DNA of 64,000 bases from Escherichia coli. GTDB lineage: Bacteria; Pseudomonadota; Gammaproteobacteria; Enterobacterales; Enterobacteriaceae. Positions 21,822 through 23,362 of this stretch are shown here, one piece after another. The notes below the pieces were generated by a model. It saw only the letters and a program-made list of their open reading frames with translations. It was not told the origin of the DNA and searched no databases. The position numbers and the translations under genes were made by a program. How positions within the stretch are numbered: position 1 is the first letter of the stretch; the number at the start of each line of letters is the position of its first letter. Location of the stretch: the NCBI RefSeq assembly GCF_003018255.1, contig NZ_CP027440.1; one strand, written 5' to 3'.

Positions 21822-21904
21822 TCCTGCAATATATTGAATTGGCAAGATTTTTGTAGGCCGGATAAGGCGTTCTGAACTGAACCCCAAAACCTGGACAGTT
21901 TCAG

Positions 21905-22627
21905 TTAACCGGCTTTTTGATACTCAGTCCGGTATTCTAACGGGCTGAGTCCCCCAAGACTGAGTTTTATTCTTTTTTGATTCCAGTAAGTTATGTATTC
22001 GTTAACGGCATTTTCCAGCTCTTCTACACTTCTGTAGTCCCGGCGATAGTACATTTCTTCTTTCAGGTGACCTAAGAAATTCTCCATTACCGCATTATCA
22101 AGACAGTTGCCCTTGCGTGACATGCTCTGCACTAACCCTTTGTCTGCCAGGGCAGACTGATAACTTTTTATCCGGTAATGCCACCCTTGATCATTGTGGA
22201 GCAGCGGTTTTTCTCCTTCTGCAAGGCTTTCCAGCCCCTTATTTAACATGCGCTTCACCAGCTCCTCTGTAGGCCTGCAGGCAGTTTCCCACGCCACGAT
22301 TTCCCCGTTAAACAAATCAAGTATCGGGGACAGGTACAGTTTTTGTCCGCCAGCCCTGAATTCGGTGATATCTGTCACCCATTTCTCACAGGGAGCTTCC
22401 GCTTTGAACTGCCGCTGAAGGATATTTTCTGCAGCGAGTCCCATATTTCCCCGGTAAGACCGGTATTTCTTCAGGCGCACAGGAGACTTCAGGCCGAGCT
22501 GTTGCATCAGTTTTCGCACCGTTTTGCCACTGAACTTAAGACCTCTTTTCTGAAGCTCACAATGGATCCGCCGGTACCCATAACATCCCCGGTGTTCATG
22601 GAAGATGGAGGCTATGAGCTGTTTCAC
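21905..22627 (-). CDS. IS3-family transposase OrfB (DDE integrase domain); full OrfAB needs a -1 frameshift upstream
   Basis: 240-aa ORF with IS3/IS150-group DDE-domain features (…HNDQGWHYR…SRKGNCLDNAVMENFLGHLK…). Confidence 0.8.
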   Translation of the reverse strand: MKQLIASIFHEHRGCYGYRRIHCELQKRGLKFSGKTVRKLMQQLGLKSPVRLKKYRSYRGNMGLAAENILQRQFKAEAPCEKWVTDITEFRAGGQKLYLSPILDLFNGEIVAWETACRPTEELVKRMLNKGLESLAEGEKPLLHNDQGWHYRIKSYQSALADKGLVQSMSRKGNCLDNAVMENFLGHLKEEMYYRRDYRSVEELENAVNEYITYWNQKRIKLSLGGLSPLEYRTEYQKAG

Positions 22628-22731
22628 ATCAGCATACTTGTCCTTAGCCTTCTGCAGTGACAGCTGGTAGTACAGCGTGCTTCTGGCCAGCCCTGCAGCC
22701 TTTAACAGGTCAGACTGGCAGTGTCCGCACT

Positions 22732-23262
22732 TCAGGCTCCGGATGACTTTCGTTTTTTCTCCAGCTCCTGGCGCTTTTTTTCCAGGAGATGCTCCTGCAT
22801 GGCTTTCAGATATGCATTTTCTGCGCGAAGATAACGCAGCTCATTCTTCATCTCTTCCGGCGTCATGTTTGCCTCGTTTTCATGGGTATCATCAGAACGG
22901 GTCATGCTTTTCTCCTTCCTGCGCCTGATAAAGGCCTCATTACCAGATTTGCGGTAGCCTTTTATCCAGTTTTTAACCATGTTGTGGCTGGGAATGTTAA
23001 ACCGGGCAGCTACCCGGGGTAGAGACTCAGAATGCCCGAGAGCATAAAGAACCACGCAAAGTTTATCTTCAGGAGAATAGCTACGCTTGTGTCTGCAATC
23101 CAGTGCCCGAGGACCGTGAAGAAGAAAAAGATTAATCCAGTGTGAGAGGCTGGTGTGAGAAAGTTGAAAGAGTTTTGCCGTAGAAATGATGCCTGCATGA
23201 CCAGCCAGGTAATGATTTACAGCGGCAAGTTTTACTTCAAATGAATGTTTCATAAACTGCAC
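22732..23262 (-). CDS. IS3-family transposase OrfA (HTH plus leucine zipper)
   Basis: 176-aa ORF with HTH region and C-terminal heptad-rich segment; directly upstream of OrfB. Confidence 0.8.
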   Translation of the reverse strand: MQFMKHSFEVKLAAVNHYLAGHAGIISTAKLFQLSHTSLSHWINLFLLHGPRALDCRHKRSYSPEDKLCVVLYALGHSESLPRVAARFNIPSHNMVKNWIKGYRKSGNEAFIRRRKEKSMTRSDDTHENEANMTPEEMKNELRYLRAENAYLKAMQEHLLEKKRQELEKKRKSSGA

Positions 23263-23362
23263 CTTCAGATGTCAGATTATGTCCAACATTTGGGGTGCAG
23301 TTCAGTTTCACGCCGCATCCGGCATGAATTACGCGCACTTTGTCAACAATCTGACGTTAGCA

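Follow-up and report, generated by a model that had tools for sequence, protein, structure and literature searches.

The genes fepA and entD of the Escherichia coli sequence studied here (contig NZ_CP027440.1; the window is the whole stretch of 64,000 nucleotides that was analysed) are separated by an insertion of about 1.43 kb, which raises the question of what this element is, how it came to lie between the two genes and what becomes of the expression of entD. The earlier note, made from the letters alone, had described an intact, IS1397-like element of the IS3 family in a REP unit and had proposed that it may alter the regulation of entD. It was found that the element is IS1397 itself, beyond mere likeness, that is, an already known element in its preferred type of target; for identity and target alone, this is regarded as practically certain. 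The consequences for entD are worded below with more reserve.

Structure and identity of the element

The minus-strand unit of 1432 bp has the termini TGAACTG...CAGTTCA, ends of the IS1397 type which are common to the copy in the window, the only one there, and to two other copies. The inverted-repeat scan gave arms of 26 nt (21872-21897 and 23280-23305; terminal repeats of 25/26 nt) that are 85% complementary, so that the extent, the terminal repeats and the orfA/orfB content claimed in the earlier note were borne out to the nucleotide, the repeats being shared with both copies on alignment. The length of about 1.4 kb, the imperfect repeats of about 25 nt and the 5'-TG...CA-3' ends are those of the IS3 family. 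The coordinates of all features are collected in Table 1.

Table 1. Features of the fepA-entD locus, numbered from the first letter of the window
Feature	Position	Strand	Remarks
Complete IS1397 copy, 1432 bp	21873..23304	-	Same orientation as fepA and entD; boundaries confirmed by the empty site of K-12 and by two other copies
Left inverted repeat (IRL), transposase-proximal end	23280..23304	-	TGAACTGCACCCCAAATGTTGGACA; inverted-repeat scan and copy comparison
Right inverted repeat (IRR), entD-proximal end	21873..21897	-	Inverted-repeat scan and copy comparison
orfA, 173 aa, two HTH_28 domains	22732..23253	-	Stop just past the A_AAA_AAG heptamer (22774-22780)
orfB part of the OrfAB fusion, -1 frame; HTH_21 and rve	21905..22780	-	D295, D355, E391 and K398 kept; S354N and F394L relative to standard IS1397
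fepA-side half of the split palindromic unit with the GAAAC duplication copy	23305..23323	-	GCCGGATGCGGCGT
entD-side half of the split palindromic unit (GAAC duplication and GCCTTATCCGGCCTA)	21854..21872	-	
Remaining repeat cluster (BIME): 33-nt linker and second, intact palindromic unit	21784..21853	-	Linker with TTGCCA-16-GATAGT and the Rfam ES036/CssrF match
fepA, 746 aa, intact	23363..25603	-	Stop 59 nt upstream of the IS
entD, 206 aa, divergent allele, intact	21131..21751	-	ATG 121 nt downstream of the IS end
Promoter-like ATGTCA-18-GATAAT inside orfB	22123..22094	-	9/12 consensus
Promoter-like TTGCCA-16-GATAGT in the repeat-cluster linker, just upstream of entD	21845..21818	-	9/12 consensus

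The start of orfA (23253) lies 51 nt from the left end of the element and the end of orfB (21905) 32 nt from the right end. The two frames are consecutive, orfB being in the -1 frame, and the slippery heptamer A_AAA_AAG is found in the orfA frame at IS nt 525-531. A conceptual -1 slip at this site would give an OrfAB protein of 449 aa without an internal stop; the frameshifting itself is predicted, and the RefSeq annotation of this transposase carries the remark 'programmed frameshift'. In OrfAB, Pfam recognised two HTH_28 domains, HTH_21, rve (E=9e-20), rve_2 and rve_3, and the NCBIfam IS3 transposase model NF033516 scored 375.8 bits against a cut-off of 160. The DDE(K) motif is complete, with D295, D355 and E391, and K398 seven residues past the glutamate.

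A megablast comparison with 5426 complete E. coli genomes retrieved the element at a coverage of at least 80% in 1707 of them; a 1432-bp unit that recurs to this extent is not a chance find. The copy in the window is 100% identical to those of JNE23-011 and JNE112863, 99.9-100% identical to that of DETEC-S792, and 99.4-99.5% identical to numerous copies that carry the RefSeq name 'IS3-like element IS1397 family transposase'; the variant in the window is labelled just 'IS3 family transposase' there. According to the ISfinder convention, a nucleotide identity of at least 95% defines the same IS, and the value found here, obtained with RefSeq-named copies and not with the original reference entry, lies well above it. 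With the NCBIfam score, this confirms the assignment to the IS3 family and turns 'IS1397-like' into IS1397. The likeness extends to the 1432-bp length, the TG...CA repeats of about 25 nt, the orfA/orfB arrangement with an A6G -1 frameshift site, the DDE transposase, the palindromic-unit loop as target, the 4-bp duplication and the 99.5% nucleotide identity. IS1397 belongs to the IS150 group of the IS3 family in ISfinder; Bachellier, Clement, Hofnung and colleagues reportedly gave its first description, from natural isolates of E. coli. ISKpn1 and IS621 likewise pick repeated extragenic palindromes (REP or palindromic units) as insertion sites (PMC1525189); both are separate elements, ISKpn1 being directed to Klebsiella palindromic units and IS621 belonging to the IS110 family, and the window copy is IS1397 by sequence identity.

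Compared with the copy of E. coli 042, the one in the window differs by 7 nt and five amino acids (T92M, R175K, S354N, F394L and V439L), and its target duplication is off by one base. S354N adjoins the catalytic residue D355, and F394L is found three positions beyond E391. Among the 120 closest protein clusters, position 354 is S in 115, R in one and N in four, all four of them at the fepA-entD locus. When homologues were searched to gauge how conserved S354 is in the IS3 family, exclusively proteins at least 98% identical were obtained, and the result therefore bears on the confinement of N354, not on the tolerance of the position. The description of the element as intact thus holds for its reading frames, its ends and its DDE(K) residues, and structurally it is complete; as regards competence for transposition, the imperfect GAAAC/GAAC duplication, S354N and F394L, and the occurrence of the variant at a single locus among the places listed suggest caution.

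The palindromic-unit target and its repeated use

The preference of IS1397 for palindromic units has been shown experimentally (PMC1525189, with reference to Clement 1999 and Wilde 2001, 2003). At the empty site of K-12, an uninterrupted palindromic unit, GCCGGATGCGGCGTGAACGCCTTATCCGGC, lies 41 nt past the fepA stop and is followed by a linker, a second, inverted palindromic unit and entD. In the window, the insertion point is the loop of the fepA-adjacent unit, with ...GCGGCGTGAAAC on one side of the IS and GAACGCCTTATCCGGC... on the other, and the arms of the split unit (21857-21870 and 23310-23323) still pair in the inverted-repeat scan. The insertion into a REP unit is thereby established. 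Of the flanks quoted in the earlier note, the palindromic halves on either side are correct; the right flank omitted 'gttt', and the imperfect duplication went unmentioned.

A match to Rfam ES036/CssrF (44.4 bits), considered as a possible sRNA gene upstream of entD, falls in the linker of the repeat cluster and was read as a putative repeated linker motif. CssrF was originally defined at dacB/yhbZ in Shigella (PMC3071730).

IS1397 typically enters the central loop of a palindromic unit within a BIME and duplicates 3-4 bp; this is found here with one inserted A, the duplication reading GAAAC on the fepA side and GAAC on the entD side. Two other copies have perfect duplications: ETEC4085, also at fepA-entD, reads GAAC, IS, GAAC, and E. 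coli 042, whose copy occupies a different palindromic unit, flanked by yceF and rluC, reads AAAC, IS, AAAC. The normal product of IS1397 would accordingly be a 4-bp duplication, to which the fepA-side copy in the window adds one A. A metagenome scaffold, L009, is the closest IS-free relative of the haplotype and reads GTGAACGCC at the insertion site; L009 and K-12 share the empty site GCGGCGTGAACGCC. The GAAC of L009 indicates an ancestral target GAAC, the extra A being a later change, and an ancestral GAAAC loop was rejected since both L009 and K-12 have GAAC. The origin of the locus may thus be pictured as the transposition of a single IS1397, following its preference for repeats, into the loop of the palindromic unit that directly follows fepA, an event that would have produced a 4-bp GAAC duplication, one copy of which later gained an A. 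This assumed later insertion of 1 nt counts as a point against the explanation.

The fepA-entD location is rare. A 300-nt probe across the fepA-IS junction was fully covered in 4 of the 5426 complete E. coli genomes, and the probe for the entD-IS junction was found at full length in the same four; the IS-less flank-flank probe was covered in 5346/5426, K-12 representing the empty site. In three of the four (JNE23-011, JNE112863 and DETEC-S792), the flanks, the IS variant and the downstream island are all as in the window. The fourth, ETEC4085 (NZ_CP122634.1), carries IS1397 at the identical nucleotide of the same palindromic unit, in the same orientation and between intact fepA and entD genes; however, its IS differs at 17 positions, its GAAC duplication is perfect, K-12-type sequence (IS421/hokE) follows downstream, and entD is present as the ordinary E. 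coli allele, the entD-side segment matching the window at about 86% (121 mismatches over 878 aligned bases). By these differences, ETEC4085 represents an independent event, the same nucleotide having been struck twice.

Transcription across the element

As the earlier note had stated, fepA and entD are regarded as an operon under Fur control, with transcription from the bidirectional control region of fes-fepA (PMC10763504), and in the window this region is identical to that of K-12 at 239/242 positions, the Fur-box-like site included. Both genes are adjacent, on one strand and downstream of this promoter region, in the order and on the strand found in K-12. The intergenic repeat cluster is identical to that of K-12 save 4 nt, and the window has 1432 bp extra in the first palindromic unit; the IS does lie between the fepA stop and the entD ATG, which confirms the physical separation of the two genes. 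That the regulation of entD is changed by the IS is a reasonable and plausible idea that none of the computations supported. A literature search for co-transcription of entD or effects of an IS on entD found nothing specific.

In the consensus scan, no terminator-like site was present on the sense strand from the fepA stop to the entD start, so that read-through from fepA would be possible; with the element co-oriented with fepA and entD, read-through into entD is the most likely course. Two promoter-like sites scored 9/12 between fepA and entD, a number below the 2.9 expected from shuffled sequences. At the IS end, neither the consensus scan nor a relaxed scan gave anything above 8/12, and the outward IS promoter invoked in the earlier note was for this reason rejected as evidence. 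The linker site is not made by the IS and predates the insertion, since the GATAGT variant is also present in L009, which lacks the IS; the idea that the better -10 GATAGT (GACCAT in K-12) arose in compensation after the insertion was rejected on the same ground. For transcripts that come in from fepA, RNA folding predicted pairing between IS nt 1-11 and nt 42-53, by which the ribosome-binding site and AUG of orfA would be buried, and a C-rich, G-poor stretch with C/G up to 3.0 follows at about IS nt 70-226. The predicted hairpin and this stretch would plausibly favour Rho-dependent polarity.

The explanation that is tentatively put forward for the whole, its transcriptional part being inferred, is that of an IS1397 in a palindromic unit with read-through, some attenuation and a weak IS promoter. 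entD would most likely still be read through from the Fur-controlled fepA promoter, and weak transcription from the transposase promoter would add to its expression. Some loss by polarity is probable because an IS RNA of this length, being poorly translated, is prone to premature termination, and enough EntD may still be produced to keep enterobactin synthesis going.

It seems unlikely, by comparison, that, as the earlier note had considered, entD has been uncoupled from Fur and iron altogether, with fepA transcripts ending in the IS and constitutive expression from the transposase, orfB or linker promoter. The sites inside orfB and in the linker, together with a predicted hairpin blocking the translation of orfA ahead of a C-rich region that could load Rho, would supply the elements of such a scheme, and entD is intact even where the upstream fepA has frameshifts or nonsense codons, which fits independence from fepA expression. 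However, both sites reach just 9/12 and are no more numerous than in shuffled sequences, the linker site belongs to the repeat cluster of IS-free L009 as well, the IS end stays below 9/12, and the sense strand is free of terminator-like sites.

The surrounding haplotype and the loss of fepA

The entD of the window encodes an intact but divergent protein. Its nucleotide identity to the entD of 5406 E. coli genomes is 81-82%, and it reaches at least 99% in just three IS-bearing genomes; among named Escherichia species, none with an entD closer than 79% was found. The protein is identical to that of K-12 in 158/206 amino acids and scores 366 bits on the EntD model (cut-off 169). Sequence of the K-12 type extends over the repeat cluster and about the first 65 nt of entD, and the divergence sets in from about codon 22. 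entD was intact in 27/27 IS-bearing loci examined, the sole polymorphism being D21E (one SNP).

Downstream of entD, where K-12 has IS186 and hokE, an IS630 pseudogene is followed by a six-gene island encoding a small protein of the dispersin family, a permease, a TolC-like protein, an adaptor, an ABC ATPase and an Lnt-like N-acyltransferase. The layout is that described for the Aat/CexE acylation-secretion system (PMC7943197, PMC7478709).

In the assembly collection, 694 blocks are indexed for the exact transposase protein of the window (P0121, RefSeq WP_106905402.1), and in 10/10 distinct places listed this protein lies between fepA and entD, with no differences in the IS and with identical flanks. 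Between genomes, the block formed by the IS, entD and the island shows 0-4 mismatches per 2 kb, compared with a difference of about 3-4% in the neighbouring fes-fepE segment (window about 26-34 kb). From these comparisons the copy is a single insertion inherited vertically in a tight haplotype with the divergent entD and the Aat-like island, as the proposed explanation would have it, and no sign of renewed movement by the S354N variant is seen among them.

The near-invariance of the block also agrees with an insertion that is neutral for entD: the repeat cluster would be a 'safe haven', little EntD would be needed, and the IS would have hitch-hiked with the entD-plus-island haplotype. The documented targeting of palindromic units by IS1397 (PMC1525189) and the tolerance of the identical insertion by two independent lineages are in line with this. 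Nevertheless, complete neutrality is considered somewhat doubtful, since the rarity of the insertion (4/5426) despite a hot-spot target could mean selection against it. Besides, 1.4 kb of foreign, poorly translated RNA within an operon usually reduces downstream expression, which counts against neutrality too. For the most part it overlaps with the explanation preferred above, zero effect being the sole difference.

In the IS-bearing clade, fepA has been inactivated in at least five independent ways, the fepA of the window itself being intact. The lesions comprise a 20-bp insertion at CDS nt 742, the nonsense mutations Q229* and Y331*, and 1-nt deletions at nt 581 and nt 655. An intact fepA was absent in about 13 of 22 sampled contigs, a non-random sample in which many contigs may be clonal. 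In contrast to fepA, entD, entF, ybdZ, fes and fepE were full length in 10/10 representatives; in JNE23-011 and JNE112863 the entire ent/fep cluster is free of flags, and, apart from fepA, this holds for three complete genomes.

These lesions could be taken as the first decay of a system made useless by a strongly polar insertion that silences entD and leaves little or no enterobactin, and the predicted translation block with the C-rich stretch at the IS 5' end would point the same way. Such silencing is nevertheless judged very unlikely. The decay is limited to fepA (2.2 kb) while the adjacent 6.6 kb (entF, ybdZ, fes, fepE) and entD remain full length in all ten representatives, although neutral decay should strike entF alone more often than fepA; ETEC4085, with the same insertion, keeps both fepA and entD intact. 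Colicins B and D, as well as some phages and microcins, moreover use FepA as their receptor, which gives a specific reason for the loss of FepA. As the lesions are confined to fepA and the adjacent 6.6 kb of ent genes are untouched, specific selection against the FepA receptor is favoured over general decay.

The population data thus argue against an abolished EntD function, with the qualification that the block is near-invariant and the insertion may simply be young. The same qualification touches the preferred explanation of read-through with some attenuation: given an IS without differences and a single SNP in entD, the persistence of intact genes may not prove selection. That explanation also leaves unaccounted for the partial loss of the system represented by the fepA knock-outs.

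A link between the loss of fepA and the IS is speculative. The IS might act as a transcriptional buffer, its weak promoter freeing entD from fepA expression so that FepA could be discarded without a polar loss of enterobactin. This is held to be more improbable still than the silencing of entD; if it were true, the clade could drop FepA repeatedly, for instance in escaping colicins B and D, catecholate microcins or phages.

Taken alone, a further copy of this well-characterised IS, which three RefSeq genomes already carry in annotated form, matters little, and the attrition of fepA, the divergent entD allele and the Aat-like island are more unusual features of the locus than the IS. The insertion marks a distinctive haplotype, in which the IS is combined with the divergent entD and the Aat/dispersin-like island and in whose clade fepA has been repeatedly inactivated. 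The double independent strike on one palindromic unit represents a natural confirmation, inside an operon, of the target specificity of IS1397. Should the IS truly alter the regulation of entD, nature would here have provided a 'safe-haven' insertion by which an iron-uptake operon is nevertheless rewired.

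The divergent entD allele and its limits

The entD gene lying downstream of the IS1397 copy is a highly divergent allele, showing 81-82% nucleotide identity to the entD of 5406 complete E. coli genomes, and in the complete E. coli set an identity of 99% or more was found only in the three genomes that carry the IS within the same haplotype. Approximately the first 65 nt at the 5' end are of the K-12 type and the sequence diverges from about codon 22 onward, a pattern suggestive of a recombination breakpoint within the gene. The nearest IS-free relative was encoded on a metagenome scaffold (L009; 89% amino acid identity), and no named Escherichia species was found to possess an EntD with more than 79% amino acid identity to that of the window.

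Features of the window
Feature	Position	Strand
Truncated IS4-family (IS186/IS421-like) fragment	13026-13807	-
Six-gene island	14331-19704	+
IS630-family transposase pseudogene, with frameshifts and an internal stop	19852-20787	-
entD, highly divergent allele	21131-21751	-
Rfam RF02751 (ES036/CssrF) match, in the linker between two palindromic units	21810-21851	-
fepA, intact	23363-25603	-
Intact palindromic unit, same type as the IS target	45031-45060	-

The adjacent island

Between entD on one side and hokE/IS4 remnants on the other is located an island, missing in K-12 and in L009, whose products are a dispersin-family small protein, a permease, a TolC-like protein, an adaptor, an ABC ATPase and an Lnt-like N-acyltransferase. 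It shares the gene layout of the Aat/CexE secretion-acylation system, the window copy being chromosomal. Degenerate mobile-element remnants were present on both sides, and the IS4-family fragment adjoins a frameshifted ORF of the hokE region.

Palindromic units and the fate of fepA

The linker match to RF02751 scored 44.4 bits against a gathering score of 37.6. Since CssrF was defined at dacB/yhbZ in Shigella (PMC3071730), this match probably represents a linker motif that recurs in BIMEs and not a locus-specific small RNA. The sole intact unit of the target type in the window differs from the IS-target unit by 1 mismatch, contains no IS, and lies inside a stretch (44943-45079) with an indel between the window and JNE23-011.

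In the clade carrying the same fepA-IS-entD insertion (loci L008, L015, L017, L019, L021, L023, L025, L028, L030 and L033 were compared), fepA was independently inactivated in at least five ways, the lesions being the nonsense mutations Q229* and Y331*, 1-nt deletions at nt 581 and nt 655, and a 20-bp insertion at nt 742; entD, entF, ybdZ, fes and fepE were kept at full length.

Comparison with JNE23-011

In the genome of JNE23-011, citR is annotated as frameshifted (L006 9569-10470, corresponding to about 54.7-55.6 kb of the window). The first 24 kb of the window, comprising the IS, entD and the island block, are nearly identical to JNE23-011, and a divergence of 2-4% was observed at 26000-34000 and 36000-46000 (fes-entF-fepE-fepC and entS-entE). 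Such a mosaic is suggestive of a conserved haplotype block with homologous recombination in the sequence around it.
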